From NCBI GenBank assembly GCA_035474175.1, contig DATINN010000160.1, positions 1 through 39,099 of the forward strand: a stretch of 39,099 nt of DNA, given 5' to 3'. A program made the translations under genes and the position numbers. Under the pieces are notes generated by a model that ran no database searches, had not been told where the DNA came from, and was given only the letters and a program-made list of their open reading frames with translations. This document shows, piece after piece, positions 24,063-39,099 of the stretch; the first letter of the stretch is position 1; each line of letters starts with the position of its first letter. Origin of the DNA: Mycobacteriales bacterium (GTDB taxonomy: Bacteria > Actinomycetota > Actinomycetes > Mycobacteriales > CADCTP01).

Positions 24063-26993
24063 TTGTCTGGAAAGCGCTTCGTGTCCGCGGTCGCTGCGGC
24101 CGCCGTCACCCTCGCGGGCGTCACCGCCGCCTCGCTGTCGTTGTTCGTCGACCACGCCGGTGCCGTGAGCACCCAGCAGCCGAGCCTGGTCAGCGCCGTG
24201 CCGATGGCCGGCACGCCGAACATCACCGACGGCACGGTCCGCACGTTCGTGCAGGTCGGCAACAAGGTGTTCGTCGGCGGCAGCTTCACCTCGGCCACCC
24301 CGTCCGGCTCCGCCACCGCGGTCCCGCGGACGTACGTGCTGGCGGTCGACGCGGCCACCGGAGCCCTGGACACCGGGTTCGCCCCGACCCTCGACGGTGA
24401 GGTCGACGCCCTGCTGCCCGGGCCGACGCCCGGCAGCGTCTACCTCGGCGGCGCGTTCAACAACGTCAACGGCGTGAAGAGCAAGAGCCTGGCGCTGCTG
24501 GACGTCAACACCGGCCTGGCCGTGTCCGGCTTCAAGGCCCCGCCGATGAACGGCGTGATCAACGACCTGGCCATGGCCCAGGGCCGGCTGGTCCTGGCCG
24601 GCACGTTCACCACGCTCAACGTGAGCTCCCGGCCCGGCCTGGGCGCGCTCGCCCCGACCACCGGCGTGATCGACCCGAGCTTCATGACGATCGCGGTCGC
24701 CGGTCACCACAACTACCCGCACTTCAACTCGTCCGGGCGGCCGATCGGCGCGCAGGCCGCGGTCGGCGTCTCCAAGATCGACGTCACCCCGGACGGCAGC
24801 CGCATGGTGATGATCGGCAACTTCCTGACCGCGGCCGGCCTGGACCGCGACCAGATCGCGATGGTCAACCTGACCAGCACGACCGCGACGGTCGACCCCA
24901 ACTGGCGGACCGCGCGCTACACCGACGACTGCATCTTCAACGCGTACGACTCCTACATCCGCGACGTCGACTTCTCCGGTGACGGGGCCTACTTCGTCGT
25001 CGTCGCGACCGGCGGCCCGGCCGCCGGCTCGCTCTGCGACACCGCGGCCCGCTGGGAGACCAACGCCACCGGCACCGCGGTCCAGCCGACCTGGGTCGAC
25101 TTCACCGGCGGCGACACCCTGCTGTCCGTCGCGATCACCGGCACGGCCGTGTACGTGGGCGGTCACGAGCGCTGGATGAACAACTCCAACGGCCGCGACT
25201 CGGCCGGCGCCGGCGCGGTGCCGCGCCCGGGCGTGGCCGCGCTCGACCCGATCAACGGCATGCCGTTCTCCTGGAACCCGGGGCGCAACCCCCGCGGCGC
25301 CGGTGCCTACGCGGTCTACGCCAGCCCGACCGGCCTGTGGGTCGGCAGCGACACCGACTTCATCGGCGACTTCGCCTTCAAGCGCGGCAAGATGGCGTTC
25401 TTCCCGCTGGCCGGCGGGACCGCGGTCGGGCCCAACAGCACCGGCCGGCTGCCCGGCAACGTCATCGTCGGCTCGCCGGCGGCGGCCCCGACGACCGCGG
25501 TGTCCCTGGCGTACGACGGGACCACGGTGGGGGCGCCGGCGACGCTGCCGAGCAGCGGGCTGGACTGGAGCACGGTCCGGGGCGCGGTCATGGTCGACGG
25601 CAAGGTGTTCTACGGCTCGGCCACCGACAGCAACCTCTACTGGCGGACCTTCGACGGGACCACGCTGGGGGCGGCGAACCTGGTCGACCCGTACAACGAC
25701 CCGGCCTGGGCCACGGTGGACACCGGCTCGGGGCAGACGTACGTCGGCCGGAAGTCCGGGTTCTACGCGGAGATCCCGAGCGTGACGTCGGAGTTCTACA
25801 GCGGTGGCCGGCTCTACTACACGCTGTCCGGGCAGACGGCGATGTTCTACCGCTACTTCACGCCGCAGAGCGGGATCCTCGGCGCCGACCGGTTCACGGT
25901 CGCCGGCACCAGCAACTGGAGCGACACCGGCGGTATGTTCCTGAACGGCACCAACCTCTACCTCACCTCCCGCACCACCGGGACGCTGCGCCGGATCAGC
26001 TTCTCCGGCGGGGTGTTCGGGACGGCGTCGACGACGGTCAGCGGGCCGGCCGTGGACGGCCGGGACTGGCGCGGCAAGGCCGTGTTCCTGTCCACCGTCG
26101 GGCCCAACGCGGCGCCGCTGGCGGCCTTCACGACCAGCTGCGGCGGGTTGAGCTGCACCGTCGACGGCACCTCGTCCTCCGACCCGGACGGCACGGTCAC
26201 CTCCTACGCCTGGAACTTCGGGGACGGCACGAGCGGGACCGGGGCCACGGCCACCCACGCGTACGGGGCGGCCGGGACGTACTCGATCACGCTGACCGTG
26301 ACCGACAACCGGGGCGGGACCAACGCGACCACCCGGTCCGTCACGGTCTCGGTGCCGACGACGGCGATCGCGTTCCGCGGCGCGGCCAACAGCAACGTCA
26401 ACGCGACCACGGCGGCGGTCACCGTGCCGGCGGCCGTGCGGGCCGGTGACGCGCTGGTGCTGACCGCGACGGTCAACTCCGACACCGTGACGGTGAGCGA
26501 CCCGGCCGGGTGGGCCCGGCTGGACCGGGCCAGCACGACCGGGATCCAGACTCTCGTGTGGAGCAAGGTCGCCGCCGCGTCCGACGCGTCCTCGGCGCCG
26601 AGCATCACGCTCGGCGGGACGGTGAAGACGTCGCTGACCGTGGCGGCGTGGTCGGGGACGGCCGCGAGCGTGCCGGTGGCGTCGTTCGCACACGGCGTCG
26701 ACACGGTGACGACGGCGTCGCACACGACGCCGGCCGCGACCGTGGTCACGCCGGGCAGCTGGGTCGTGTCGTACTGGGCGGACAAGTCCTCGAGCACGAC
26801 GGCGTGGACGGCTCCGGCCGGTCAGACCGTGCGCAACGTGTCGCTCGGCACCGCGGCCGGCCGCGTGACGTCGCTGCTCACCGACGCCGGGGCGCCGACC
26901 GCGCCCGGGGCGGCCGGCGGGCTGACGGCGACCACCGACGTCGCCGGCACCAAGGCGACGACGCTGACGCTGGTGCTCGCACCGGCCTCCTGA
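24063..26993 (+). CDS. Large secreted protein, paralog 1: beta-propeller (delta-60/DUF5122-like repeats), second repeat module, PKD domain, unknown C-terminal domain
   Basis: The likely start is TTG 24063 after GGGGGAA, giving (M)SGKRFVSAVAAAAVTLAGVTAASLSLFVDHAGA as a signal peptide; GTG 24081 and the track start 23961 are alternatives. Repeats: VFVGGSFTS.../VYLGGAFNNVNGVKSKSLALLDVNTG.../LVLAGTFTTLN. PKD: CTVDGTSSSDPDGTVTSYAWNFGDGTSGTGATATHAYGAAGTYSITLTVTDNRGG. The C-terminus ends in LVLAPAS. Confidence 0.85.
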   Translation: MSGKRFVSAVAAAAVTLAGVTAASLSLFVDHAGAVSTQQPSLVSAVPMAGTPNITDGTVRTFVQVGNKVFVGGSFTSATPSGSATAVPRTYVLAVDAATGALDTGFAPTLDGEVDALLPGPTPGSVYLGGAFNNVNGVKSKSLALLDVNTGLAVSGFKAPPMNGVINDLAMAQGRLVLAGTFTTLNVSSRPGLGALAPTTGVIDPSFMTIAVAGHHNYPHFNSSGRPIGAQAAVGVSKIDVTPDGSRMVMIGNFLTAAGLDRDQIAMVNLTSTTATVDPNWRTARYTDDCIFNAYDSYIRDVDFSGDGAYFVVVATGGPAAGSLCDTAARWETNATGTAVQPTWVDFTGGDTLLSVAITGTAVYVGGHERWMNNSNGRDSAGAGAVPRPGVAALDPINGMPFSWNPGRNPRGAGAYAVYASPTGLWVGSDTDFIGDFAFKRGKMAFFPLAGGTAVGPNSTGRLPGNVIVGSPAAAPTTAVSLAYDGTTVGAPATLPSSGLDWSTVRGAVMVDGKVFYGSATDSNLYWRTFDGTTLGAANLVDPYNDPAWATVDTGSGQTYVGRKSGFYAEIPSVTSEFYSGGRLYYTLSGQTAMFYRYFTPQSGILGADRFTVAGTSNWSDTGGMFLNGTNLYLTSRTTGTLRRISFSGGVFGTASTTVSGPAVDGRDWRGKAVFLSTVGPNAAPLAAFTTSCGGLSCTVDGTSSSDPDGTVTSYAWNFGDGTSGTGATATHAYGAAGTYSITLTVTDNRGGTNATTRSVTVSVPTTAIAFRGAANSNVNATTAAVTVPAAVRAGDALVLTATVNSDTVTVSDPAGWARLDRASTTGIQTLVWSKVAAASDASSAPSITLGGTVKTSLTVAAWSGTAASVPVASFAHGVDTVTTASHTTPAATVVTPGSWVVSYWADKSSSTTAWTAPAGQTVRNVSLGTAAGRVTSLLTDAGAPTAPGAAGGLTATTDVAGTKATTLTLVLAPAS

Positions 26994-27014
26994 CCGACGC
27001 ACCGCACACGACGA

Positions 27015-27040
27015 GGGCCCGGCGCAGACGCGCCGGGCCC
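27015..27040 (+). terminator. Hairpin gggcccggcgc-agac-gcgccgggccc downstream of paralog 1
   Basis: A perfect 11-bp stem with a 4-nt loop, 22 nt after the TGA at 26991-26993. There is no clear U-tract, which is common in high-GC actinomycetes. Confidence 0.6.
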
Positions 27041-27141
27041 GCGCCGTCTGTGACTTCTGCCGGCTCCCGCCCGGTCCCGACCCGGGTGCGTGGTGCGAGC
27101 CGGGAGAGCCGGTGCGGGAGCACCGGCCCTTCGTCGATACC

Positions 27142-27164
27142 GTCCGGCGCCGTGGGCGCCGGAC
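27142..27164 (-). terminator. Hairpin gtccggcgcc-gtg-ggcgccggac just downstream of the minus-strand sulfotransferase stop
   Basis: A perfect 10-bp stem with a 3-nt loop, 4 nt from the stop at 27169-27171. Confidence 0.5.
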
Positions 27165-27168
27165 GACC

Positions 27169-28038
27169 TCAGGTGCGCCAGGTCGGGGGGTGACCGAGCC
27201 AGGACTCGAGCTCGGCGTCAGAAGCGGCGAGCTGGTCCTCCAGGGCGGCGCGCAGCGACTCCGGCATCGGCGATCGCGGCCGGGCGTTGTGCTTCTCGAA
27301 CGAGATCCCGGGCGCGGTCCCGATCCCGAGGAAGTCGGTGACCGCCGCGAACACCGGCTCCGGGTCGGTGAAGAAGCGCTGGCTGTCGACCACGTGCATC
27401 CGGTCCCGCCCGAAGATCCCCTCCAGCCGGGCCAGCTGCTCCGCGTACCGCCCGCGGGTGATGTAGGCGTGGTGCTGGTGCGAGTGCGACTGGTACGCCG
27501 GGTCGGCGATCAGCTTCGCCTCCTCGCCGGCCAGCCGCACCGGCTCCAGCTCCAGCGCCTTCTCGAACGGCTCGGTCTCGAAGCCGCGCGCGGTCTCGTG
27601 GGTGTGGGCCGAGTACGCCCGCTCGACCGGGTCGCGCAGCAGCACCAGCAGCCGCACCCCGGGCAGGTCGGCCGCGATCCGCCGCCCGGCCAGCGGGTGG
27701 AACATGTAGTACGGGCTGGACTCGCCGGTGATCGGCAGCTGCCCGTCCACCGCCGCCCGCCGGGCCGAGGCCAGCAGCGGGAAGTGCCCGCGATACCAGG
27801 CCGGCCCGTGCCCGTAGCCGGTGTCGAAGTAGTGCGCGCCCTTGTGCAGCACGGCCGGCAGCACCCGCGGGTGCTGGGCCAGCGTCTTGTACATCGACGT
27901 CGTCCCGCACCGCTGCGCCCCGACGATCAGGAACGACGGCGTCATCCGGGCCGAGGCGGTGACCCGCCCGGTCGCCCGGGCCGCCGCCCGCGCCAGCTCC
28001 TGCAGCCCGGGCCGGGCCTTGATCTGTTCCTTGAGCAC
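27169..28038 (-). CDS. Sulfotransferase, Sulfotransfer_1 type (resembles the heparan-sulfate 3-O/N-sulfotransferase family)
   Basis: This is the C-terminal part of track ORF 27169..28410. GTG 28038-28036 is preceded by GGGGGAGGAA. SFLIVGAQRCGTTSMYKTLAQHPRV (5'-PSB), HYFDTGYGHGPAWYRGHFP, ITGESSPYY (candidate catalytic Glu), VRLLVLLRDPVERAYSAHTH (3'-PB), MHVVDSQRFFTDPEPVFAAVTDFLGI. Confidence 0.88.
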   Translation of the reverse strand: MLKEQIKARPGLQELARAAARATGRVTASARMTPSFLIVGAQRCGTTSMYKTLAQHPRVLPAVLHKGAHYFDTGYGHGPAWYRGHFPLLASARRAAVDGQLPITGESSPYYMFHPLAGRRIAADLPGVRLLVLLRDPVERAYSAHTHETARGFETEPFEKALELEPVRLAGEEAKLIADPAYQSHSHQHHAYITRGRYAEQLARLEGIFGRDRMHVVDSQRFFTDPEPVFAAVTDFLGIGTAPGISFEKHNARPRSPMPESLRAALEDQLAASDAELESWLGHPPTWRT

Positions 28039-28061
28039 GAGCTCGATTCCTCCCCCTCGGT

Positions 28062-29252
28062 TCAGCGCGCCGCGACCGGGACGGCCGCCCGGGCGGCGGC
28101 CAGTACCCCTTCGGTCATCGCGCGCCAGTCGCCCCACCGGGTCTGACCGTCGCCGATGTAGCGGGTCAGGATCTCCACCAGGTAGAGCACGGCCACGGTC
28201 GCCGCGGACTCCGCCGGCACCCCCACCGGCCCCAGCACCCCGGGCGCCCGCCGGACCGAGTCCGCGAGCATCATTCCGGCCGCGCCGGCGTCGGCCGGCA
28301 ACCGCGGCTGCAGGTCGTAGTGCAGCGGGTCGAAGCCGACCGGCACCCCGGCGCCGAAGCGCTCCCAGTCCCAGGCCAGCACCGTGCCCTCGACCACCGC
28401 GGTGTTCCACGGCGTCCAGTCACCGTGCCAGGACCCGATCCGGAGGTCGGCGCCGGCCAGCGCGTCCAGCGCCGCGGCCAGCCGGTCCCGGTCGGCGCCC
28501 GGCGGCAGCGCGGCCACCCGGGCCCGCAGCCCCGTCCCGTACGGGCCGTCGAGGGGCTGGGTCGAGATCCCGCCCACGGCCGCGACCTCGGCGGTGGCCG
28601 CGACCAGCCGCCCGTCGGCCGGACGCCGGGGCTGGCGGACCGGCAGCGGCGACTGGACCAGGATCTCCAGCCCGCGCCAGGACCCGCCGGAGAGCACCTT
28701 GGGCACGGTCACCCGGGTCAGCCCGGCCCCGGCCAGCGTCCGCAGCGCCGCGGCCTCGCCGGCGACCAGCCGGCCGGTCAGCACGGTGGTGGCGACCTTG
28801 GCGTAGCCGAGCGTCCCGCCGTCCGCGCCGAGCAGCTGCAGCACCGGCTTGCGGTTGGCCCGGGCCGGCCCCAGGTGCAGGCTGACCAGCACCGGCCGGC
28901 CCAGCTCGCGGGAGAGGTGGTCCTCGATCGTGTCGCCCGCGCCGCCGACCTCGAGCCGGTCGCGCAGCAGCCGGTCGCCGGCCCCGGCGGTCAGCGCGGC
29001 CGCGGCCAGCCGGACCGCGGCCCGCCGGGCGGCCGAGGACTGCTCGCCGTAGCCGCGCACCGCGCCGCCGGCCGCGCGCCGGGTCCGCCGCGGCACCAGC
29101 AGCCGGGGGTGCTCCAGCGACGGCAGGATCAGGTACGACCGGCGGGCGCCGGCGTGCCGGGCCCGGCCGAGCGTGGCCGTGGCCGGCGCCGGCCACAGCA
29201 GCGGCACCAGCTCCCGCAGCCACGCCACCCGCTCGTCGCCGCCGGGGGTCAC
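28062..29252 (-). CDS. Phosphotransferase of the APH/choline-kinase/protein-kinase-like fold (putative glycan or sugar kinase)
   Basis: This is the C-terminal part of track ORF 28062..30575. GTG 29252-29250 overlaps the Wzy stop as GTGA (29249-29252), with GGAGG upstream. Brenner-type motif: IGSWHGDWTPWNTAVVEGTVLAWDWERFGAGVPVGFDPLHY (HGDxxxxN ... DWE ... D). Confidence 0.78.
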   Translation of the reverse strand: MTPGGDERVAWLRELVPLLWPAPATATLGRARHAGARRSYLILPSLEHPRLLVPRRTRRAAGGAVRGYGEQSSAARRAAVRLAAAALTAGAGDRLLRDRLEVGGAGDTIEDHLSRELGRPVLVSLHLGPARANRKPVLQLLGADGGTLGYAKVATTVLTGRLVAGEAAALRTLAGAGLTRVTVPKVLSGGSWRGLEILVQSPLPVRQPRRPADGRLVAATAEVAAVGGISTQPLDGPYGTGLRARVAALPPGADRDRLAAALDALAGADLRIGSWHGDWTPWNTAVVEGTVLAWDWERFGAGVPVGFDPLHYDLQPRLPADAGAAGMMLADSVRRAPGVLGPVGVPAESAATVAVLYLVEILTRYIGDGQTRWGDWRAMTEGVLAAARAAVPVAAR

Positions 29253-30661
29253 GGGCTCACCTCCGGGTGCTTCTGCCGCCACAGCAGCCCGACCGCGATC
29301 ATCTGCAGCGCCAGCGGCCAGCTGGTGGCCGAGTAGACGAACATGAACCACATCGAGACCAGGATCGTCGCCTGCGCGCCCATCCCGATGGCGGTGCGCT
29401 GCCCGCGGTAGAACCAGAGCACGGCCAGGAAGAAGCCGATGTAGAGCGACACCCCGAGGAAGCCCTGGGCGAAGACGGTCAGCCAGAACTGCCCGGTGCT
29501 GCCGATGTCGGCGTTGCCGCAGGTGTTGCAGGACGCCGACGAGCCGACGGCGATGGACTGGGAGCTGCCGATGACCTCGCGGGTGGTGCCCCAGCCGACG
29601 ATCGGCGACTCCTTCGCGCCCTGGATGGCGGCGTGCGCGAGGTTGGACCGGATGTCGTTGCTGTGCCCGTGGGCCAGCCGCTCCTGGACCACCGTCGCCA
29701 GTGGGGAGGCCAGGAAGACGACGGCCAGCGTGGACGCGGCGGCGGCCAGCCCGATCACCGTGGCCACCCGGCCGCTCATCGCCAGCCGGACCGCCAGCAG
29801 CAGCAGGGCCAGGCCGATGCCGACCCACAGCCCGCGGTTGAGCGACTGCACGATCGGGACCAGCGCGACCGCGAGCAGCGCGACGGCGAGCAGCCGGCCC
29901 CGGGCCCGGGCCAGCACCGCCCACACCACCAGCCAGATCAGCAGCAGGCCGAGGACGTTGCCCCAGGTGTTGGTGTATTCGAACGGCGCCTTCGGCCGGG
30001 GCGAGGTGAACCCGAGCACGTCCTGGTTCTGCGCCGCCCCCGGGTGCACCAGCACCCGGACGTACGCGTTGGAGCGCAGCCCCTGCGGCAGCACCATCTC
30101 CAGCGGCGAGGTGAAGTTGAAGCCGGGCGCGAGCAGGCCGAGCAGGCCGCCCGCGACGGTCACCGCGAACAGCGTGGTCAGGCAGCCGACGATGCGCCGG
30201 TCGGTCAGCCCGCGGCCGCGGCTGTTGATGACGTACAGGGCGAGCACGGCGGCGGCGGCGTAGTTGAGCCAGCGCAGGCTGAACGCGATGAGCTGGCTGG
30301 CGGCCCCGTGCGGCAGCGTGTCCGGCGCGGTCCGGCCGAGCATCAGCCCGCTGACGATGACCGCCAGCAGGAAGCACAGCCACAGCCCGAACCCGCGCGG
30401 CACCGCCAGCCGCTCCATCCGGCGCAGCTGCCACGCCATCGGCACGGCGAAGACGATCACCGCGAAGCTGCCGAGGCCGAGCGCCCACCAGACCGGGAAG
30501 AACGCGACCAGCGCGGTGAACGGCCAGTGCCCGGGCAGCACGGCGCCGCCCCGGCGCAGCGCCCGCGACAGCCACGGGCCGGTGCGGGTGACGTCCTGCG
30601 AGCTGGTGTGGCCCGGGGTCGGGTGCCGCCGGAGCGCGGGCGGGTCGAGCGTGCTGGTCAT
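29249..30661 (-). CDS. wzy: O-antigen ligase/polymerase family membrane protein (Wzy-like)
   Basis: ATG 30661-30659. It has more than 10 TM helices. The Wzy_C-like core is ALVPIVQSLNRGLWVGIGLALLLLAV, and a large extracytoplasmic loop carries AHGHSNDIRSNLAHAAI. Confidence 0.83.
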   Translation of the reverse strand: MTSTLDPPALRRHPTPGHTSSQDVTRTGPWLSRALRRGGAVLPGHWPFTALVAFFPVWWALGLGSFAVIVFAVPMAWQLRRMERLAVPRGFGLWLCFLLAVIVSGLMLGRTAPDTLPHGAASQLIAFSLRWLNYAAAAVLALYVINSRGRGLTDRRIVGCLTTLFAVTVAGGLLGLLAPGFNFTSPLEMVLPQGLRSNAYVRVLVHPGAAQNQDVLGFTSPRPKAPFEYTNTWGNVLGLLLIWLVVWAVLARARGRLLAVALLAVALVPIVQSLNRGLWVGIGLALLLLAVRLAMSGRVATVIGLAAAASTLAVVFLASPLATVVQERLAHGHSNDIRSNLAHAAIQGAKESPIVGWGTTREVIGSSQSIAVGSSASCNTCGNADIGSTGQFWLTVFAQGFLGVSLYIGFFLAVLWFYRGQRTAIGMGAQATILVSMWFMFVYSATSWPLALQMIAVGLLWRQKHPEVSP

Positions 30662-30665
30662 GGCG

Positions 30666-31661
30666 TCACCCCGTGGCGATCTTCGAGCCCGGGGGCAGCA
30701 GCAGGATCCAGGTCGGGCCGGCCGCGAACCGCAGCGGCACGCTGGCCGCGTCGACGTAGCCGGTCACCGCGGTGGCCGAGCGCTTGTACCAGGTGCAGGG
30801 CGTGACCGTGCCGCCGGAGACGGCGGTGCAGGCGCCGCGGCCGAGCACCCGGGCGCTCTGCGCGATGCGGTCCGGGTCCCGCAGCTTGACCTGCTTGTAC
30901 GGCACGGTCTGCAGGATCAGGTTGGCCACCGACACGCCGGGCGACCCGGCCCGGGACCAGCGCTTGCCGGTGGCCGAGTACGTCCACGTCTCCGCGGCCG
31001 AGCCGGGCGGGGTCACGGTGATCTTCGCCGCCTTGCCCAGGTGGCTGGTGCTGAACCGGTCCCCGGCCGCCGCGACCGGCAGCACCGCGGGCGGCGGCTT
31101 GGCCCCGGCCGGCGCGGCCGCGAGCACGGCCGCGGTCGAGGTGGTCCGCCCGGTCGCCCCGTAGGTGAACGCGGCCGCCGAGGTGACCTGGGTGACCTCG
31201 GCCGCGCGGAGCAGGCCCTCGGTGCCGCTGGCGCCGCCGACGTTCGCGTAGAGCGGGCGCAGGCTCGGCAGCACGAACGGGTCGGCCGGGCGCACCTGCC
31301 CGACCGGACCGATCTGGGCCACGTCCCGGGACTGGAACACCGCCAGCGCCCGGGCCAGGCCGGCCGTCTCCCACTCCTGGTAGACGAGGTCAGCCTGCTC
31401 CAGGCCGACACCGCCGCTGACCGGCAGCCGGACCGCGATCGCGGGCCGCGCGGCCACCGCCGCCGACACCGGCAGCCCGGTGAGCGGCGCGACCGGGCCG
31501 GCTGCCGCCGGGGTGGTCGCGGTGGCCGCGGGCGTGGTCGTCGCCGCGGCCGGGGCGGTGCTGTCGGCCTGCAGGCTGGCCGGCGGGGCACCGCCGCACC
31601 CCGCGAGGAGCAGGGCGGCGCCGAGCGGGAGGACCAGCCGCAGTGTCGTCGCTCGCGTCAC
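30666..31661 (-). CDS. DUF3048-family lipoprotein
   Basis: GTG 31661-31659. The lipobox is LLLAGC in (M)TRATTLRLVLPLGAALLLAGCGG. An Ala/Thr/Pro linker follows, then PLTGLPVSAAVAARPAIAVRL...GLEQADLVYQEWETAGLARALAVFQSRDVAQIGPVGQVRPAD, matching the DUF3048 N-terminal pattern. Confidence 0.82.
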   Translation of the reverse strand: MTRATTLRLVLPLGAALLLAGCGGAPPASLQADSTAPAAATTTPAATATTPAAAGPVAPLTGLPVSAAVAARPAIAVRLPVSGGVGLEQADLVYQEWETAGLARALAVFQSRDVAQIGPVGQVRPADPFVLPSLRPLYANVGGASGTEGLLRAAEVTQVTSAAAFTYGATGRTTSTAAVLAAAPAGAKPPPAVLPVAAAGDRFSTSHLGKAAKITVTPPGSAAETWTYSATGKRWSRAGSPGVSVANLILQTVPYKQVKLRDPDRIAQSARVLGRGACTAVSGGTVTPCTWYKRSATAVTGYVDAASVPLRFAAGPTWILLLPPGSKIATG

Positions 31662-31666
31662 CGGTC

Positions 31667-33580
31667 TCAGTCCGCCGCCGGGCGGGTGATCGTCCGGGTC
31701 GGCTCGTCCAGGTCGGCGTCGGCCGCGGTGTCGTCGGCGGGGACGGCCCGGTAGCCGGTGCCGTTCACGCCGGAGCCGTTCACGTGCCCGTTGGTGTGGC
31801 CGTTGGTCGAGCCGGGCGTGCGGCGGTTGAGCGCGGGCGCGCCGGTGCGGGCGCCGGTGGTGAGGTCGTCGGCGGCTGCGCCGTAGCGCTCGTCGTCGTA
31901 GCGTTCGTCGGTGCTGCCGTAGCGGTCCGCCCCGGACCGCGCGTCCAGCCCGGACCGCGCGCCGTACCGGTCCGGCGTGGACGGGGCCGGCGGGGCGGAG
32001 TAGGCCGAGCGGGTCGCCGTGGTCGCGGCCCCCGCGGTGGTGCTGCCCGTCGAGGGCGCCGGCGGGGTCCGCTTCTCCCGCCGCACCGGCACCCGCGGCA
32101 TGGTGACCATGCCGATGGACCGGGTGCCGACGAGGTCGATCAGCCGGGACGCGCGCAGCACCTGGTCGTTGGTGGTGGCGCCGAGCTCGACGACCAGCAC
32201 GGTGACGTGGGCCAGCCGGGCCAGCGTCTGGGCCTGCGAGCCCGAGGACATCGGCGGCGCGTCGATGACGACGAACCGGGCCGAGTGCCGGAACTGCCGG
32301 ATCGCCTGCTCGGTGAGGAAGACCTGGGTCGCCTCGCTGGTCAGCTCGGCCTCGACGCCGGGCGGGATGACCCGCAGGCCGTGCCCGGCCGCCGGCCGCT
32401 GCTCCAGGTCGGAGACGTTGATCCCGCCGTGCAGCAGCTCGGACAGGCCGGGCGCCTCCGGGTCGAGGTCGAGGATCTGCCGGCCGCTGGAGTCGGGGTC
32501 GGCGCAGACGAGCACGGTGTCCAGGTTCATCCGGGCCAGCGAGACGGCCAGGTTGGCGGCCACGATGCTGCCGGCCGGCCCGTCCGAGGCGCCGGCGACC
32601 AGGATGATCTGCTCCCGGTCGGAAACCAGCGAGACCAGCACGTTGCGCAGCTCGCTGAACGCGTTGCCCTGCCGGCTGTGGGTGCTCTGCACCATGCTGA
32701 AGTCGGTGCGCGCGCCGGTCGGCACCTCGACCAGCACCGGCACGTCGAACTCGCGCTCCAGGTCGACCGAGCGGCGGACCCGCCTGTCGGCGCGCTCGAT
32801 CGCGAAGGCCAGCATCAGCCCGAACAGCAGGCCCAGCAGCAGCCCGCTGGCGATGGCCAGGATGCCGAGCGGTCCGGACGCGGAGTCCGGCAGTACCGCG
32901 TCCGTGCTGATGTTGCCGGGCTCCACCGGGTCGTTCAGCGGGACCAGGCGTCCGGCAGCCGTGCTGATCTGATCGGTCACGTTGTTGAGCTGTGCCTGCG
33001 CGAACGCCCGGTCGGGCGAGTCGACCGGCAGGGCCGCGATCTGGCCGGTCAGCGTCTTCTGCTGGGCGACCAGGCTGGCGATCTGGGTCTTCAGGGCCTT
33101 GGCCCGGGCGGCGTTGTCGGCCTTGGCCACGTCGCCGCGGTTCTGCAGGTAGGCCTCGGCGAACGCGTGCGCGCCCTGCTGGGCCCCGGCCGGGTTGTCG
33201 GCCGTGAACGCGATCTCCATCAGCGTGGTGTTGGCCGGCACGGTCACCTTGACCGACTCACCCAGGTCCTGCGGGGAGATGCTGGTCCGCAGCAGGTCGC
33301 GGGCCTTGGTCTCGACCGCGGAGGAGCGGACCAGCTGGGCCTCGGTGTCGAGGTTGACGGTGCCGGTGGTGCGCCCGCCGGTCTGGTCGCTGTCGGTGCT
33401 GACCGGGGCGACGAGCACGGTGGCGGTCGAGGTGTATTCGGGGGACCGGGTCGCGGTGAACGCGTAACCGGCGCTCAGCCCGACCAGCAGGCCGAGCGCG
33501 ATCGCCCACCACCGCCGCCGGGCGAGGCGGAGGTAGTCGCCCAGCTGGAGCGTGTTGCCGCCGGACTGGCTCGCCACCAA
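31667..33580 (-). CDS. wzc: Wzc-like polysaccharide co-polymerase / BY-kinase homologue with a degenerate Walker A and a Tyr-rich tail
   Basis: The start is TTG 33580 or GTG 33577, after GAGGGGGAA. Wzz-like N-terminus: LGDYLRLARRRWWAIALGLLVGLSAGYAF...EYTSTATVLV. A coiled-coil region and a second TM follow. P-loop NTPase-like domain: IILVAGASDGPAGSIVAANLAVSLA (no Lys), VLVCADPDSSGR (A'), FVVIDAPP (B). The tail is DRYGARSGLDARSGADRYGSTDERYDDERYG. Confidence 0.83.
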   Translation of the reverse strand: MVASQSGGNTLQLGDYLRLARRRWWAIALGLLVGLSAGYAFTATRSPEYTSTATVLVAPVSTDSDQTGGRTTGTVNLDTEAQLVRSSAVETKARDLLRTSISPQDLGESVKVTVPANTTLMEIAFTADNPAGAQQGAHAFAEAYLQNRGDVAKADNAARAKALKTQIASLVAQQKTLTGQIAALPVDSPDRAFAQAQLNNVTDQISTAAGRLVPLNDPVEPGNISTDAVLPDSASGPLGILAIASGLLLGLLFGLMLAFAIERADRRVRRSVDLEREFDVPVLVEVPTGARTDFSMVQSTHSRQGNAFSELRNVLVSLVSDREQIILVAGASDGPAGSIVAANLAVSLARMNLDTVLVCADPDSSGRQILDLDPEAPGLSELLHGGINVSDLEQRPAAGHGLRVIPPGVEAELTSEATQVFLTEQAIRQFRHSARFVVIDAPPMSSGSQAQTLARLAHVTVLVVELGATTNDQVLRASRLIDLVGTRSIGMVTMPRVPVRREKRTPPAPSTGSTTAGAATTATRSAYSAPPAPSTPDRYGARSGLDARSGADRYGSTDERYDDERYGAAADDLTTGARTGAPALNRRTPGSTNGHTNGHVNGSGVNGTGYRAVPADDTAADADLDEPTRTITRPAAD

Positions 33581-33783
33581 TGTTCCCCCTCGTAGGCCCC
33601 GGCCGCGCGCGCCGCGCGGCTCAGGTGCGATCTCCCGGCGACGTCCCCCGCAGCCGGTCCGCGCCAACGTTAGTCCGTACGGCGGTCGACCACGGCGTGA
33701 TTGCCAAGAATCGTGGTTCGGCCACTCGACCGGAGGGTGAGGGTAGGCTCCCCTCCTTACCGGGCGGTCGATCAGGAGCACGA
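33581..33783. promoter_or_regulatory. Divergent intergenic region (wzc operon <-> GT14/paralog 2 unit); promoters presumed
   Basis: About 200 nt between divergent starts with no GC3-biased ORF. Confidence 0.35.
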
Positions 33784-34704
33784 GTGCGGGTCTGTTACCA
33801 CATCCAGTCGCATACCCTGCCCGGCCAGCTGGTCCGCCTGATCCGGACGATCCGCACCACCAGCCCCAACAGCCTCGTTGTGGTCAGTCACTCCGAGACC
33901 GGCCCCGACCTTGACCTGGGCGAGCTGGCGGCCGATCCCGCGGTGATCGTCACCCGGGTGCCCAACGGCTACGCCGACTTCTCCCACGTCGACCGCTGGC
34001 TGGAGGCCGTGGACCTGCTGGAGGAGCGCGGCGAGCCGTACGACTGGCTGTGCAACATCTCCGGCCAGGACTACCCGCTGCTGCCGCTGGCCGCGGCCGA
34101 GGCCGAGCTGGCCGCCGGCGGCGCGGACGGCTACCTGCAGTTCTTCCCGCTGCTCAACGGGCCCAAGTGGCCGGCCGCGAAGGTCCGCACCCGGTACGCC
34201 TTCGCGTACGCCAAGGTGCCGCTCTCGCCCCGGGCGCAGCGGCTGCTGCGGCCGCTGGCGGCGGTGAACCGGGTGCAGCCGCTGGTCCGGTTCAGCCCGG
34301 TGCACCGGGCCGTCGGGGTCCGCCGCCGCCGGCAGCCGATCCCGCTCGCCGACCTCTACGGCGGCTCGTTCTTCTGCTCGCTGTCCCGGGACTGCGTGCG
34401 CTACGTGCGGGAGTGGGTCGCGACCCACCCGGCCGAGGTGCGCTACCTGCGCGGCTCGCTGACCTCGGCCGAGGTGTTCTTCCAGACCGTGCTGGTCAAC
34501 GCGGGGACGTTCCGGCTGGAGAACGACAGCAAGCGCTACTTCGACTTCCGCAACAGCCGCCACAACCACCCGAAGGTGCTGACGGTGGCCGACCTGCCCC
34601 GGATGCAGAGCCGCGGCGCGCACTTCGCCCGCAAGATCGACGAGCGGGTCGACGCCGAGCTGCTCGATCGACTGGACGAGAAGCTATTCACGCTCCGTAG
34701 TTAA
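33784..34704 (+). CDS. Glycosyltransferase family 14 (Core-2/I-branching / xylosyltransferase 'Branch' domain)
   Basis: GTG 33784 follows AGGAGCACGA. (M)RVCYHIQSHTLPGQLVRLIRTIRTTSPNSLVVVSHSE...DWLCNISGQDYPL...YGGSFFCSLSRDCVRYV...SAEVFFQTVLVN...AHFARKID. This is the characteristic order of Branch-domain motifs. Confidence 0.82.
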   Translation: MRVCYHIQSHTLPGQLVRLIRTIRTTSPNSLVVVSHSETGPDLDLGELAADPAVIVTRVPNGYADFSHVDRWLEAVDLLEERGEPYDWLCNISGQDYPLLPLAAAEAELAAGGADGYLQFFPLLNGPKWPAAKVRTRYAFAYAKVPLSPRAQRLLRPLAAVNRVQPLVRFSPVHRAVGVRRRRQPIPLADLYGGSFFCSLSRDCVRYVREWVATHPAEVRYLRGSLTSAEVFFQTVLVNAGTFRLENDSKRYFDFRNSRHNHPKVLTVADLPRMQSRGAHFARKIDERVDAELLDRLDEKLFTLRS

Positions 34705-34836
34705 TTGGTTACTCAGCAATGCGTGTTCACTCACAGTTGCCAATTTCGGCTCCGGGCCGTCATCAACCCTCGTATTCTTCCTCTCACTGATCGGACGGGG
34801 GCGGCGTCGCCATCCGCCGAGTTCCTTGGGGGGAAT

Positions 34837-37800
34837 GTGACGAGACGCTTGGTGGCCGCCGCCCTGGCGGCCTTGGTGGGGACCTTGCTGGCCGTGCAGC
34901 CGGCCTGGGGGGTCAACGCGCAGCACGACAAGGTCGTGTCCGCGGTGCCGTCGGCGGCCACACCGAACGCGGTCAACGGCACCGTGTTCGGCATGGCCCA
35001 GGTCGGCACGACGATCGTCATGGGCGGCAGCTTCACGTCGGTCACCTCGCCCAACCGCGCGACGACCTACAACCTCCCGTACGTCGTGGCCTTCAACCAG
35101 GCCACCGGCGCGGTCAACACCGCGTTCGCGCCCGCCCTGGACGGTCAGGTCAACGCCGTGCTGCCGGGCCCGACGGCCGGCACCGTCTACGTCGGAGGCA
35201 GCTTCAACAACATCGGCGGCGTCAAGGCCAAGGGCCTGGTGCTGCTCAACGTCTCCAACGGCAGCCGGGTCGCCGGCTTCGCGACGCTGGCCATGAACGG
35301 CATCGTCAACACCGTCGCCCGGTCCGGCAACCGGATGTTCCTGGGCGGCACGTTCACCACGATCGGCGCCTCGCAGCGCGGCGGCATCGCCTCCTTCAAC
35401 GCGACCACCGGCGCCCTGGACTCGTTCATCACCAGCAAGGTCACGGTCAACCACAACTGGACCGCGACCAACGGCGGGGCCAAGGGCGGCGTCGGCGTCT
35501 CCAAGATCGACGTCACCCCGGACGGCTCCCGCCTGGTCGCGATCGGCAACTTCAAGCTCGTCGACGGCCTGTCCCGGGACCAGGTCGCGATGTGGGACAC
35601 CTCCGGCGCCACCGCCGCGCTGCGGCTGGACTGGCAGACCCACCGCTACGAGCCGGCCTGCTTCTACTGGGCCTACGACTCCTACATCCGGGACGTGGAC
35701 TTCTCGCCCGACGGCACGTACTTCGTGATCGGCGCGACCGGCGGCGGCAACGGCACGCTCTGCGACACCGCGGCCCGGTTCGAGACCGGTGCGGTCGGCA
35801 CCGACGTCCAGCCGACCTGGGTCGACTACGCCGGCGGCGACACCGTGCTCTCGATCGCCATCACCGGCACGGCCGTGTACGCCGGCGGCCACATGCGCTG
35901 GATGAACAACCCCAACGGCAACGACGCGCCGGGCGGCGGCGCCGTGCCGCGGCCGGGCATCGTGGCGCTCGACCCGGCCAACGGCATCCCGCTGTCCTGG
36001 AACCCGGGGCGCAACCCGCGCGGCGCCGGGGCGTACTCGCTGCTGGCCACGCCGCAGGGGCTCTACGTCGGCAGCGACACCGACTACATCGGCAACCGGA
36101 AGTACTTCCACGGCAAGATCGCGTTCTTCCCGCTGGCCGACGGGGCCGCGCCGGCCTCGACCGCGGTGCAGGCGCTGCCCGGCGGCGTCTACCTCGGCGC
36201 CTCCCAGCAGGCGGCCGCGAGCAACGTCCTCTACCGGGTCAACGCCGGCGGGGGAGCGGTGCAGGCCACCGACTCCGGTCCGGACTGGTCCGACGGCTCG
36301 GCCAACGTCAGCGGCGGCAGCACGGCCGGCTGGAGCCCCGTGGCCAACGTCAACGCCACGGTGCCGGCCAGCACGCCGCGCTCGATCTTCGACAGCGAGC
36401 GGTACGGCCAGCAGAGCTGGACGTTCCCGGTCCCGGCCGGAGCGACGGTCAAGGTCCGGCTCTACTTCGCCAACCGCTACCCCGGCACGTCGGCGCCGGG
36501 CCAGCGGGTGTTCACCGTGGCGGTCAACGGCACCGCGGTGCTGCCCTCCTACGACATCGCGGCCGACGTCGGCGACCAGACCGGCACCATGAAGGAGTTC
36601 GCCAACCTCACCGGCGCCGGGGACGGGGCGATCCACGTCGACCTGACCAACCACGTCGAGAACGCGCTCATCAACGGCATCGAGATCGTCCGCACGGACG
36701 TCCCGGAGCCGCCGGCGGGCGCGGCCGGTGCGCTGGTCGAGCGCAACTTCGACGGCAGCACCGCCGGTGCCGTGACCCAGGTCAGCTCGCCGCTGGACTT
36801 CAGCACCGTGCGCGGCGCGACCCTGGTCGGCAACCAGCTCTACTACGGCAAGACCGACGGGCTGCTCTACCGGCGGGCGTTCACCGGCACCACGTTCGGC
36901 GCCGAGTCGCTGGTCGACCCGTACAACGACCCGGCCTGGATCAACGTGGACACCGGCTCCGGGCAGACGTTCAAGGGCGCCCGGCCGTCGTTCTACAACG
37001 AGATCGTCAACGTGACCGCGATGTTCACCGACGGCAGCGGGCAGCTGTACTACAAGCTGCTCGGCGACTCCAGGCTCTACAAGCGGGCCTTCAGCGCGGA
37101 CAGCGGGATCATCCACGACGACCGGATCGCCACCGGGACCACGCTGCCCGACATCACCGGGGCGTTCTTCTCCGGCGGCAACCTCTACTACGCCACCCGT
37201 GCGGACGGGAACCTGACCAAGGTCGGCTTCTCGGCCGGCACCCTGACCGGCGCGCCCACCGTGGTCAGCGGGCCGTCGGCGGACGGCGTGGACTGGCGGT
37301 CCCGGGCCCTGTTCCTCGGCCCGCGCATCGCCGCCAACACCCCGCCGACCGCGGTCGCGGCCGTCACCTGCTCCGGGCTGGACTGCACGGCCAGCTCCGC
37401 GGGGTCCTCGGACCCGGACGGGACGATCGCCTCGACGTCGTGGGCCTGGGGTGACGGGGCCACCGGTCCGTCCGCGTCGCACACGTACGCGGCCGCCGGG
37501 ACCTACACCGTCACGCTGACCGTGACCGACAACGACGGGGCCACCGCGACGGCGACGAAGTCGGTCACCGTCACGGCCCCGCCGCCGGTGACCAACCCGA
37601 TCGCCTTCCGGGCCACCGCCGGCACCCAGGTCAACGCGACCTCGGCGTCGGTCACGGTGCCGGCCGCGGTGCAGGCCGGTGACGGCCTCGTGCTCGTGAT
37701 GACCAGCAACAGCAGCACGGTCACCTACGGCGACCCGGCCGGCTGGACGCTGGTCGACACCGCGACCACGACCGGGATCACCACCCGGGTCTACTCCCGG

Positions 37801-38226
37801 GTGGCGACGGCCTCCGACGCCGGCTCGGCGGCGACCGTCACCTCCAGCGCGATCGCGAAGCTGGACCTGCGGCTGGCGGCGTACGCCAACACCAGGACGA
37901 GCGCGCCGGTCTCGGTGCTGACCAAGGCGGTCGAGACGACCGCGGTGGCGGCGCACACCACGCCGGCGGCGACCGTGACCGGCGCGGGCTCGTGGGTGCT
38001 GTCGTACTGGGCGGACAAGTCCGGGACCACGACGGCCTGGACCGCCCCGGACGGCCAGACCGTCCGCGGGGTCACCATCGGCACCGGCACCGGGCGGGTC
38101 ACCTCGCTGCTGACCGACGCCAACGCGGCGGCCGCGGCCGGGCCCGCCGGCGGCCTGACGGCCACGACGGACGCCCCGGGCACCAAGGCCACGATGCTGA
38201 CGATCGTGCTGGCGCCCGCCAGTTAG
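34837..38226 (+). CDS. Large secreted protein, paralog 2: same architecture as paralog 1 plus an inserted malectin-like carbohydrate-binding domain
   Basis: GTG 34837 follows GGGGGGAAT. Signal peptide: (M)TRRLVAAALAALVGTLLAVQPAWG. It is collinear with paralog 1 and shares identical DNA tracts of up to 36 nt. The insert at about 36230-36690 reads LYRVNAGGGAVQATDSGPDWSDG...FDSERYGQQSWTFPVPAGATVKVRLYFANRY...QRVFTVAVNGTAVLPSYDIAADVG...NALINGIEIV (malectin pattern). PKD: CTASSAGSSDPDGTIASTSWAWGDGATGPSASHTYAAAGTYTVTLTVTDNDG. It ends in IVLAPAS. Confidence 0.87.
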   Translation: MTRRLVAAALAALVGTLLAVQPAWGVNAQHDKVVSAVPSAATPNAVNGTVFGMAQVGTTIVMGGSFTSVTSPNRATTYNLPYVVAFNQATGAVNTAFAPALDGQVNAVLPGPTAGTVYVGGSFNNIGGVKAKGLVLLNVSNGSRVAGFATLAMNGIVNTVARSGNRMFLGGTFTTIGASQRGGIASFNATTGALDSFITSKVTVNHNWTATNGGAKGGVGVSKIDVTPDGSRLVAIGNFKLVDGLSRDQVAMWDTSGATAALRLDWQTHRYEPACFYWAYDSYIRDVDFSPDGTYFVIGATGGGNGTLCDTAARFETGAVGTDVQPTWVDYAGGDTVLSIAITGTAVYAGGHMRWMNNPNGNDAPGGGAVPRPGIVALDPANGIPLSWNPGRNPRGAGAYSLLATPQGLYVGSDTDYIGNRKYFHGKIAFFPLADGAAPASTAVQALPGGVYLGASQQAAASNVLYRVNAGGGAVQATDSGPDWSDGSANVSGGSTAGWSPVANVNATVPASTPRSIFDSERYGQQSWTFPVPAGATVKVRLYFANRYPGTSAPGQRVFTVAVNGTAVLPSYDIAADVGDQTGTMKEFANLTGAGDGAIHVDLTNHVENALINGIEIVRTDVPEPPAGAAGALVERNFDGSTAGAVTQVSSPLDFSTVRGATLVGNQLYYGKTDGLLYRRAFTGTTFGAESLVDPYNDPAWINVDTGSGQTFKGARPSFYNEIVNVTAMFTDGSGQLYYKLLGDSRLYKRAFSADSGIIHDDRIATGTTLPDITGAFFSGGNLYYATRADGNLTKVGFSAGTLTGAPTVVSGPSADGVDWRSRALFLGPRIAANTPPTAVAAVTCSGLDCTASSAGSSDPDGTIASTSWAWGDGATGPSASHTYAAAGTYTVTLTVTDNDGATATATKSVTVTAPPPVTNPIAFRATAGTQVNATSASVTVPAAVQAGDGLVLVMTSNSSTVTYGDPAGWTLVDTATTTGITTRVYSRVATASDAGSAATVTSSAIAKLDLRLAAYANTRTSAPVSVLTKAVETTAVAAHTTPAATVTGAGSWVLSYWADKSGTTTAWTAPDGQTVRGVTIGTGTGRVTSLLTDANAAAAAGPAGGLTATTDAPGTKATMLTIVLAPAS

Positions 38227-38235
38227 TCCATTTCC

Positions 38236-38269
38236 GAAAAGGGGCCCGGCTTCGGCCGGGCCCCTTTTC
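38236..38269 (+). terminator. Intrinsic terminator: gaaaaggggcccggc-ttcg-gccgggccccttttc
   Basis: A perfect 15-bp stem with a ttcg tetraloop and a U-run at the 3' end of the stem, 10 nt after the TAG at 38224-38226. Confidence 0.85.
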
Positions 38270-38378
38270 CGTGTGCGGCCAATTACTCTTCGTAATCGAC
38301 GTGGACAATGCTGGAAACCCTCCCGACAATGTGTTTCGGGGGCCACTGCACATCGGTGGCTACGGGACATTCGGGGGA

Positions 38379-39099
38379 ATGAGAATGCTGTTCAGGAGTC
38401 GTCTGCTCGCGGCCGGCGTGGTGCTGGCCTTCTGCGGGCTGTTGGTGGTTCCGGCGGGCGCGTCGGCGTCCGGCGCGCTCGGCCGGGTGGTCAGCGCCAA
38501 CCCGGCCAACTACACGCCTGACGTGCGCAACGGCGCCGTCTACAAGGTGGCCGAGTATCGCGGGGTCATGTACGCGGGTGGGTCGTTCACGGCGGTGTCG
38601 GCGGCCGGCAGCGCGCGGACGGTCGCCCGCTCGCGCCTCGTCGCCTTCAACGCCGCGAACGGTGCGATCACGTCATTCGCGCCGCGAATCAACGGCACGG
38701 TGTGGGCTCTCGCCGCTTATGGCGGCTCGGTGTACGTCGGTGGGTCATTCACCACCGTGAATGGCGTCCGGCGTCCCGGACTGGTGAAACTGAATTCGGT
38801 CACCGGCGCCGTGGATCCGCGCTTCAACGCGAAACTCTCCGGCGCGGTCACGGACCTGGCCGTCGTGAACGGCCGGCTCGTCGCCAGCGGCACCTTCGGG
38901 GCACGGCTCGCGGCGCTGCGGCTGGCCACCGGGGCCAACACCGGCTACCTCAACCTGGCCGTGCGCGGGTCGGTCGCCCGCAACGCCGGGCCGACCCAGG
39001 TCTACCGGTTCGCGGTCAACCGGGCCGGCACCCGGCTGGTCGGCGTCGGCAACTTCACCAGCGTCGGCGGGAAGGCGCGCTACCGGGCCTTCATGCTCA
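38379..39099 (+). CDS. Secreted beta-propeller protein, paralog 3 (N-terminal 240 aa only; runs off the window)
   Basis: Absent from the ORF track because there is no stop in the window. ATG 38379 (or 38385) follows GGGGGAAT. Hand translation: MRMLFRSRLLAAGVVLAFCGLLVVPAGASASG (signal), then VMYAGGSFTAVSAAGSARTVARSRLVAFNAANGAITSFAPRINGTVWAL / VYVGGSFTTVNGVRRPGLVKLNSVTGAVDPRF / LVASGTF... These are the same repeats as in paralogs 1 and 2, and no stop occurs to the window end. Confidence 0.8.
   Translation, partial: MRMLFRSRLLAAGVVLAFCGLLVVPAGASASGALGRVVSANPANYTPDVRNGAVYKVAEYRGVMYAGGSFTAVSAAGSARTVARSRLVAFNAANGAITSFAPRINGTVWALAAYGGSVYVGGSFTTVNGVRRPGLVKLNSVTGAVDPRFNAKLSGAVTDLAVVNGRLVASGTFGARLAALRLATGANTGYLNLAVRGSVARNAGPTQVYRFAVNRAGTRLVGVGNFTSVGGKARYRAFML

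Follow-up and report, generated by a model that had tools for sequence, protein, structure and literature searches.

The wps-1 gene cluster of Actinoplanes missouriensis is required for sporangium formation: deletion of nearly every one of its genes resulted in distorted sporangia and a block of spore release, and its product is predicted to be a sulfated exopolysaccharide (EPS) (Tezuka & Ohnishi 2026, PMC13390465). Among bacteria, reports of sulfated polysaccharides have to date been confined to cyanobacteria, with actinomycetes raised as a possibility (PMC13390465). Here we analyzed a 39,099-bp stretch of DNA from a Mycobacteriales bacterium (contig DATINN010000160.1, 73% G+C; hereafter the window), which is a wps-1-type Wzx/Wzy polysaccharide cluster, and in particular three open reading frames (ORFs) in it, ORF1, ORF2 and ORF3, that encode secreted β-propeller proteins. 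The order wpsH-I-J-K in wps-1 is the order of the sulfotransferase, kinase-like, Wzy and Wzz genes in the window, and wps-1 also has a GT2 gene, a second sulfotransferase gene, WecG, GH26 and Wzx genes and an adjoining sulfate-activation gene (PMC13390465); we infer orthology of the two clusters from their gene order and domains rather than by comparing sequences.

The propeller family is uncharacterised but very common, and is found in this newly recognised kind of actinobacterial EPS locus. In an earlier note on this DNA, the proteins had been proposed to be dedicated extracellular partners of the polymer, whether as binding or scaffolding proteins, as a new lyase or hydrolase, or as modifying enzymes. 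Our reading, which as a whole we consider about evenly balanced between true and false, is that ORF1–ORF3 belong to a single large family of actinobacterial proteins that are secreted and lack an anchor, and that they act as dedicated extracytoplasmic components of wps-1-type clusters, through a propeller pocket that is more likely to be catalytic than purely adhesive.

Association of propeller genes with the polysaccharide cluster

The association was assessed in both directions. In the forward test, 62 genome loci, each 15 kb or longer and selected by its propeller gene, were searched with the window proteins, within 10 kb. Each of the Wzz, Wzy-like, kinase-like, sulfotransferase, Wzx and GH26 genes was present at 28–30 of the 62 loci, counts that are phylogenetically non-independent because many of the loci are from Micromonospora. 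The order of these core genes is usually fixed and there are often two or three propeller genes. The cluster-linked loci include those of Micromonospora, Catellatospora, Nocardioides, Phycicoccus, Kineosporia, Blastococcus, Frankiaceae, Jatrophihabitantaceae and unclassified metagenome-assembled genomes; in a separate look-up in Actinomadura hallensis, the neighbors of the propeller gene also included genes for a CBM96 protein, WecG, TauE and ATP-sulfurylase/APS-kinase (PAPS synthase). In the reverse test, metagenome loci of at least 12 kb were selected with an alignment of the kinase-like protein alone, the propeller playing no part in the selection, and at least one propeller gene was found at 25 of these 33 marker-selected loci. 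Relatives of the kinase-like protein were found in at least 512 stretches of metagenome contigs, showing that clusters of this type abound in the metagenomes collected. Clusters hold two or three copies of the propeller gene, which often follow a GH26 gene directly and on the same strand, as in many genomes that include many of the Micromonospora loci, or stand beside the gene for a GT28_C-sulfotransferase fusion. This two-way synteny strongly supports the view that the propeller proteins are dedicated extracellular partners of the polymer.

A distribution independent of polysaccharide loci, which the note had set against its own proposal, was found in part. Some paralogues are orphans, e.g., a second Micromonospora copy (L032; propeller-Malectin-LYY) lying near thiolase, RNase D-like and protease genes. 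Five Micromonospora genomes with the orphan copy also have a cluster-linked copy among the fetched loci. At a locus of Nocardioides dongkuii (CP059903.1, 2218388-2243223), a gene for a 1611-aa propeller protein is divergent to one for a 1824-aa multi-PKD propeller protein and DUF4956 and VTC-domain genes follow; of the cluster genes only a Wzx/MatE-like gene is nearby, with no sulfotransferase gene within 10 kb.

The family to which these genes belong is very large. The propeller search returned at least 1351 clusters at the 50% identity level (E ≤ 1e-30), and species-representative genomes contain 596 loci or more; the 80 genome loci kept were all from Actinomycetota, and those members that have a name are called only ‘PKD domain-containing protein’ or similar. 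Such a size, together with the orphan paralogues outside EPS loci, would suit secreted enzymes or lectins for foreign glycans of plants, fungi or soil, whose proximity to EPS genes would be regulatory or historical and which would be unconnected with the product of the cluster. Modules of the Malectin and PKD-CBM types are characteristic of secreted proteins that degrade glycans; the Malectin region of ORF2, for instance, matched a glucuronidase/arabinofuranosidase model. The association, however, holds in both directions across many actinobacterial genera and families, the propeller genes are co-oriented with the cluster genes, often adjoin them and in many loci lie between biosynthetic genes, and no catabolic-type transporter or regulator was seen by Pfam among the window genes. 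We therefore consider a role on foreign glycans improbable.

Domain anatomy and conserved residues of the propeller

ORF1, ORF2 and ORF3 (Table 1) have the G+C content at third codon positions (GC3) of coding sequence, 0.97 for each, and their translations begin with plausible signal peptides, as the earlier note had described: MSGKRFVSAVAAAAVTLAGVTAASLSLFVDHAGA followed by V in ORF1, MTRRLVAAALAALVGTLLAVQPAWG followed by V in ORF2 and MRMLFRSRLLAAGVVLAFCGLLVVPAGASA followed by S in ORF3. The ORF2 signal contains a twin-arginine-like TRRLVAA, whereas ORF1 (KR) and ORF3 (RSR) lack RR, so that a consistent twin-arginine translocation signal was rejected. The proteins are paralogous: ORF1 shares 55% identity with ORF2 across both of its halves (E 4e-159 and 4e-142), and ORF3 is 36% identical to the N-terminus of ORF2 (E 2e-23). 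Neither a sortase signal nor a transmembrane anchor was seen in the translations of ORF1 and ORF2. In both complete copies the propeller is followed by an LYY module, a PKD domain (PF18911/PF00801; 79.3 bits in ORF1 and 57.7 bits in ORF2 against a cut-off of 27) and a C-terminal domain of about 210 aa ending in VLAPAS, all as previously listed, and the PKD domain gave Foldseek TM scores of 0.8–0.97 (normalised to target length) against solved PKD domains. Missing from that list was a Malectin domain (PF11721) at residues 464–592 of ORF2 (54.2 bits against a cut-off of 23, E 2e-14), with PDB matches to FERONIA malectin-like domains and malectin; Pfam found none in ORF1, and this domain accounts for the greater length of ORF2. 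The description as three giant proteins fits ORF1 and ORF2, and probably not ORF3: the closest complete orthologue of ORF3 (L164:13619-14860; 57% identity) has 413 aa and ends where the propeller ends, suggesting that ORF3, cut by the contig end, is a short stand-alone propeller of about 410–420 aa.

The same range of forms is seen across the family. Members have, in this order, one propeller, 0–2 Malectin domains, one LYY module and 0–3 units of PKD plus β-sandwich; the commonest architecture is propeller plus LYY (31 of 140 representatives), and 32 of the 154 propeller genes at the fetched loci encode the propeller only, several of them lying between biosynthetic genes of the cluster. Fusion partners among the 140 representatives are almost all binding or spacer modules (Malectin, PKD, fn3, Big and FG-GAP). 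Reading a function from catalytic fusions was given up, since only two candidates were present in this set and these are too rare: P0259, with a propeller, LYY, Ig-like domains and a domain of the phosphodiesterase/sulfatase superfamily, and P0134, with GT28_C N-terminal to the propeller, possibly through a merged gene call or mis-called start. The module search gave six propeller matches in P0238, a protein of 5023 aa.

The 50–60-aa repeats that had been likened to DUF5122 are real. ORF3 scores above the 27-bit cut-off of DUF5122 (PF17164) with 32.9 bits, and the repeat is readable in blades 1–4 and 6 of the propeller despite sub-threshold scores of 17.2 bits for ORF1 and 17.3 bits for ORF2, which also have weak Pfam matches to the Rax2 propeller. 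The motif is shared with both DUF5122/delta-60 and the C-terminal propeller of Rax2 (PF12768). DUF5122 is a repeat family and tells nothing about the pocket on blades 5–7 or the association with the cluster, and we found no functional study in the DUF5122/delta-60 literature. AlphaFold2 (AF2), run with input alignments of 66 and 52 sequences, modeled the N-terminal 436 residues of ORF1 as a closed propeller (pLDDT 92.8, pTM 0.92), in which the strand pattern indicates seven four-stranded blades, and residues 470–976 of ORF1 as a module of about three blades, i.e., LYY, followed by the PKD domain and a β-sandwich (pLDDT 92.1).

A ‘conserved core’ that had been listed as a separate module corresponds to blades 5–7 of the same propeller. 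The segment DSYIRDVDFSxDG / DSYIRDVDFSPDG is a WD40-type blade motif by PDB profile search (PkwA, E 0.001), and on this ground we now regard DSYIRDVDFSPDG as part of the blade structure and not as a catalytic core. In GGHxRWxNNxNG...ALDPxNGxPxSWNP we recognise a DUF5122 repeat that has diverged, to be compared with VYLGGAFNNVNG...LALLDVNTGLAVSGFKAP of blade 2. Beyond this PkwA blade motif, the propeller, the LYY module and the C-terminal domain had no significant PDB sequence or profile match, and among the modules of the ORFs only PKD and Malectin had PDB relatives by sequence or profile. In Foldseek searches with the propeller against PDB and BFVD, the matches listed were propellers only, at TM scores of no more than 0.54. 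The best 50 of 801 matches with E ≤ 0.001 were generic, non-enzymatic WD40 or designed propellers (Fbw7, G-beta, Tako8/Ika8; TM 0.45–0.5, about 10% identity); in BFVD the best match was a phage ‘Delta-60 repeat’ protein (TM 0.52). A confident structural match to an unrelated function, the outcome that would have told against the proposal of the earlier note, was not pointed to by any structure search.

Residue conservation was read from 138 distinct propeller domains, 23 of them no more than 35% identical to ORF1 and the set extending down to about 28% identity, with numbering as in the 436-aa propeller construct. His334 is conserved in 100% of the domains, Asp292, Asp317 and Tyr330 in 99% each, Asn340 in 98%, Arg336 and Asp396 in 97% and Arg377 in 96%. 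A Cys256/Cys291 pair, probably a disulfide, is conserved in 97%. On the AF2 strand map, every conserved polar residue is located in a B-C or D-A loop of blades 5–7. By standard propeller topology these two kinds of loop share the top face, so that the residues would line a single top-face pocket. Charge was considered as a general argument for polyanion binding and dropped: most of the propellers are not basic, with a median isoelectric point (pI) of 5.5–5.7 across long and short forms. The exceptions are the ORF3 fragment (pI 11.7, with 20 Arg in 210 residues), its L164 orthologue (pI 9.0) and a short propeller of Actinomadura hallensis (pI 10.1; L003:15811-17082), and the basic charge of this ORF3-type sub-clade would suit electrostatic binding of a polyanion.

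Gene content of the window

Genes in the window were mapped by codon-position G+C and Pfam (Table 1). The cluster content by Pfam comprises two Wzx proteins, Wzz, GT2, WecG, a Bac_transf priming transferase, two sulfotransferases and CysDNQ; further genes encode a UDP-GlcNAc 2-epimerase, a UDP-sugar dehydrogenase, an Alg14-like protein and a GT14-like (Branch) protein. From established pathways, the 2-epimerase, the dehydrogenase and WecG together suggest an N-acetylmannosaminuronic acid (ManNAcA)-type uronic acid. ORF1 sits between a Wzx and a sulfotransferase gene and is transcribed divergently from the Wzx gene across an intergenic region of ~90 bp, and ORF2 and ORF3 come after the Wzz and GT14-like (Branch) genes.

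Table 1. Positions of the three propeller genes, their modules and the neighboring cluster genes in the window
Feature	Position	Strand	Basis
ORF1, 976 aa	24063..26993	+	Translation, Pfam, AF2, Foldseek, 89%-identical orthologue P0001
ORF1 putative signal peptide	24063-24164	+	
ORF1 propeller, predicted 7-bladed, DUF5122-type	about 24165-25430	+	
ORF1 LYY module, predicted 3-blade	about 25533-26066	+	
ORF1 PKD	26106-26354	+	Pfam PKD_4 E 2e-22
ORF1 C-terminal domain (predicted β-sandwich) ending VLAPAS	26361-26990	+	
ORF2, 1129 aa	34837..38226	+	Translation, Pfam, similarity to ORF1
ORF2 putative signal peptide	34837-34911	+	
ORF2 propeller	about 34915-36190	+	
ORF2 Malectin domain	36226-36612	+	Pfam PF11721, E 2e-14
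ORF2 LYY module	about 36770-37310	+	
ORF2 PKD	37336-37572	+	Pfam PKD_4 E 1e-15
ORF2 C-terminal domain (predicted β-sandwich)	37594-38223	+	
ORF3, first 240 aa, cut by contig end	38379..39099	+	Signal peptide and blades 1 to about 4
CysQ-like, CysD, CysN (activated-sulfate supply and recycling)	12531..15645	+	Pfam Inositol_P, PAPS_reduct, GTP_EFTU
CBM96 protein with GH26-like C-terminal domain	15962..17641	+	Pfam CBM96 E 4e-20; weak GH26 PDB matches
GT28_C glycosyltransferase-sulfotransferase fusion	18676..20190 (start approximate)	-	Pfam Glyco_tran_28_C, Sulfotransfer_3, Sulfotransfer_1
Membrane-anchored GH26-family glycanase (WpsE analogue)	20884..22020	-	PDB phmmer E 1e-16 to C. thermocellum endoglucanase H
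Wzx-type flippase	22060..23973	-	Pfam Polysacc_synt and MatE; 11 hydrophobic segments
Sulfotransferase, WpsH-like position	27169..28065 (start approximate)	-	Pfam Sulfotransfer_1 and Sulfotransfer_3
Kinase-like protein, 395 aa, WpsI-like position	28062..29249	-	HGDWxxWN and WDWER motifs, invariant in alignment
Polytopic membrane protein, probable Wzy polymerase, WpsJ-like position	29249..30661	-	At least 9 hydrophobic segments; position
DUF3048 protein	30666..31661	-	Pfam DUF3048 and DUF3048_C; N-terminal LLAGC motif, lipoprotein-signal-like
Wzz-type chain-length determinant	31667..33781	-	Pfam Wzz; two hydrophobic segments

Two of the tabulated proteins are related to GH26 glycanases. The GH26-family glycanase, with a single N-terminal hydrophobic segment, had neither a Pfam nor an NCBIfam match; its PDB match, endoglucanase H, is a GH26 lichenase. 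The CBM96 protein consists of an N-terminal hydrophobic segment, CBM96/DNRLRE, a Pro/Thr/Ser-rich linker and a GH26-like end that is homologous to the former protein, and it recurs at related loci. CBM96 is described as alginate-specific (PMC9971899), which makes this protein, too, a candidate for a glycanase that acts on an acidic polymer. Among the core genes, the conserved arrangement across loci has the sulfotransferase gene adjoining that of the kinase-like protein. Pfam gave no match for the latter, whose HGDWxxWN and WDWER..GFD..H motifs resemble those of kinases of the aminoglycoside-phosphotransferase or choline-kinase type, nor for the probable Wzy, which was assigned from its position.

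The window genes include no LCP-type ligase or other release enzyme that we could find. The propeller proteins could accordingly be pictured as an extracytoplasmic assembly or release factor that acts on the lipid-linked or nascent chain in place of an LCP ligase or outer export components, e.g., in release from undecaprenyl-PP, in transfer to a wall acceptor or in guidance of the chain away from Wzy/Wzz. Short propeller genes among biosynthetic genes are consistent with this, and if the invariant polar pocket recognised something that these polymers all share, such as the reducing-end linkage, its conservation across divergent clusters would be accounted for. A protein with no membrane anchor would not be held near Wzy, however; several divergent paralogues per cluster, and orphans besides, fit a stoichiometric part of a machine poorly, and, counting further against the idea, we know of no precedent for a propeller in such a role. 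It ranks among the least probable explanations that we considered.

Other genes in the window are recorded here for completeness. Another secreted protein is encoded on the reverse strand at 1-1359 and cut at the contig start. Its N-terminus is signal-like, and it contains DUF4082 (E 1e-48) and a linker rich in Pro/Thr/Ala, after which a segment (ITGEINVTASNVTIKNTRVTGGG) looks like a right-handed β-helix; the protein could be another polymer-active enzyme. A full-length gene for phosphoenolpyruvate carboxylase (7781-10660, reverse strand) lies mid-locus, and homologues of it are found no more than 10 kb from a propeller gene at two other loci, L020 and L067. A 407-aa ORF at 6378-7601 (reverse strand; GC3 0.97) had no Pfam or NCBIfam match and contains GPAGQWWWHYD, which to us recalls repeats of the prenyltransferase or squalene-cyclase type.

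Possible roles and comparison with known systems

In the mechanism that we propose, a sulfated acidic repeat unit, in which the ManNAcA-type sugar is suggested, would be made in the cytoplasm with two sulfotransferases and CysDNQ, flipped by Wzx and polymerised by Wzy/Wzz, and the polymer would meet the propeller proteins outside the membrane. The propeller would engage it through the one top-face pocket of blades 5–7, formed by His334, Asp292, Asp317, Tyr330, Arg336, Asn340, Arg377 and Asp396 with Trp310 and Trp337. In the long forms (ORF1 and ORF2), Malectin, LYY, PKD and the β-sandwich tail would keep the protein on the glycan, and the short form (ORF3 type) would be the pocket-bearing propeller alone. 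A catalytic pocket would then cleave or modify the acidic chain once it has been polymerised, working in parallel with the GH26 enzymes. Three considerations incline us slightly towards an enzyme: a constant propeller core is combined with variable binding modules (Malectin 0–2, PKD plus β-sandwich 0–3), stand-alone propellers occur among biosynthetic genes, and the pocket residues are fixed while neighboring gene content and order vary between lineages. We put a processing enzyme a little short of even, and something other than an enzyme or a matrix organiser we regard as unlikely. A more exacting version is doubtful. In it, catalysis by the propeller would define a new, structurally unassigned carbohydrate-active enzyme family acting as a lyase or hydrolase, or by de-esterifying or epimerising, on sulfated, uronic-acid-containing EPS outside the cell, with a His/Tyr/Asp/Asp/Arg active site in the top-face pocket and with the Malectin and PKD-CBM-like modules targeting the substrate; the family would then be a conserved element of a sulfated-EPS pathway that occurs in many actinobacterial lineages.

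Propellers are established folds for such chemistry. PL22, the PL24/25 ulvan lyases, PL42, the GH33 sialidases and GH145 are propellers with a top-face active site of His, Tyr, Arg and Asp, and the substrates of β-propeller lyases and hydrolases are acidic polysaccharides, sulfated in the case of ulvan. None of these enzymes was found by sequence or profile or among the best 50 of the 801 Foldseek matches, in searches that made no family-by-family test.

Several points weigh against an enzyme dedicated to the cluster. Similarity to a catalytic family was absent by Pfam, NCBIfam, PDB sequence and profile searches and among the same best 50 Foldseek matches, as the earlier note had also seen from the translations. 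The conserved Trp/Asp/Asn/Arg/His set would equally resemble a lectin site, the basis for the pocket in strand and loop topology is indirect, and with two GH26-like glycanases already in the cluster a further depolymerase is not required. At about 24 of the 62 propeller-selected loci, none of the window's cluster genes lay within 10 kb. The wps-1 paper describes no propeller/PKD protein, the products of the flanking AMIS_7260 and AMIS_7270 are unstated and their deletion had no phenotype, and sulfation of actinobacterial EPS is still chemically unverified (PMC13390465). Finally, Bap1/RbmC of Vibrio cholerae demonstrate that a propeller can work by binding EPS without catalysis (PMC10102183). 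Taken together, the lack of catalytic homology, the lectin-like residues (Trp, Asp, Asn, Arg) and the two GH26 enzymes make a Bap1/RbmC-like organiser or tether with no catalytic activity nearly as likely as an enzyme.

Either role would matter for a cluster type that spans many actinobacterial genera and families and is accompanied at most marker-selected loci by a family that was previously unstudied. If the propeller is an enzyme, its family would be a new one with sulfated or acidic glycans as substrates, and could be of use in glycan engineering; on either reading, the locus provides concrete genes and residues for studying the chemistry and role of the polymer, whether in the sporangium matrix, in biofilms or in soil aggregation.

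The accessory modules were compared with two solved structures. The top Foldseek match of ORF1 residues 470–976 was 1l0q, a fragment of an S-layer protein of Methanosarcina mazei with a tandem YVTN propeller and PKD (E 1e-10, 335 columns); both are extracellular and have a propeller-type module followed by PKD, whereas the LYY module has only about three blades, and the TM score was 0.2 and the identity 16%. The PKD-CBM44 structure 2c26, from a Clostridium thermocellum endoglucanase that we take to be Cel9D-Cel44A, matched by Foldseek with E 6e-9 over 256 columns at 21% identity and by phmmer with E 1e-6 at residues 853–978 of ORF2, and it shares the succession of PKD and a β-sandwich carbohydrate-binding module; the profile of the C-terminal domain alone, however, had no PDB match, and PKD may supply much of the likeness. 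From these matches, the accessory modules seem to serve for glycan binding and as spacers, and Malectin and the PKD-CBM44-like tail suggest, from sequence and model, that the long forms bind glycans.

Such modules bear directly on the organiser, in which the proteins would act as ‘double-sided tape’: the propeller would bind the sulfated EPS, and the other modules would bind other glycans, i.e., those of the cell wall, the spore or sporangium envelope, or plant or soil polymers, so that the matrix is anchored and stiffened, as by Bap1 and RbmC in Vibrio cholerae. By analogy with Bap1/RbmC we hold this possible, if tentative. In addition to the Malectin domain, the CBM44-like tail and the PKD spacers, it would be in keeping with the likeness of the LYY-PKD part to an archaeal S-layer protein, with trimming being already covered by the GH26 enzymes, and with the missing cell anchor, for which retention would need glycan binding. 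The propeller-only forms, probably including ORF3, are harder to accommodate: they have no second binding module, one pocket alone cannot cross-link, and tethering would need oligomerisation. The conservation of the His/Asp/Asp/Tyr/Arg/Asn set to about 28% identity is also tighter than expected for a lectin that tracks polymers differing from one order to another, and homology to Bap1/RbmC was not detected, with no PDB sequence or profile match and none among the best 50 of the 801 Foldseek matches.

The genes for Bap1 and RbmC adjoin the vps biosynthesis clusters, and their propeller is 8-bladed with an inserted β-prism. The propeller is reported to bind the matrix exopolysaccharide, i.e., Vibrio polysaccharide (VPS), with a single site in the Bap1 crystal structure, and further surface- or glycan-binding domains are described (PMC10102183; bioRxiv 10.64898/2026.08.03.742583), which gives the organiser its precedent. 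If the actinobacterial propeller is a binder, the family would be, by analogy, the counterpart of Bap1/RbmC and offer a handle for labeling or purifying the polymer. The resemblance is one of functional analogy only, between secreted, modular proteins that combine a β-propeller with lectin-type domains: unlike Bap1/RbmC, the proteins described here have a predicted 7-bladed propeller of DUF5122 type, their appendages are Malectin, LYY, PKD and a β-sandwich, and forms consisting of the propeller only exist.

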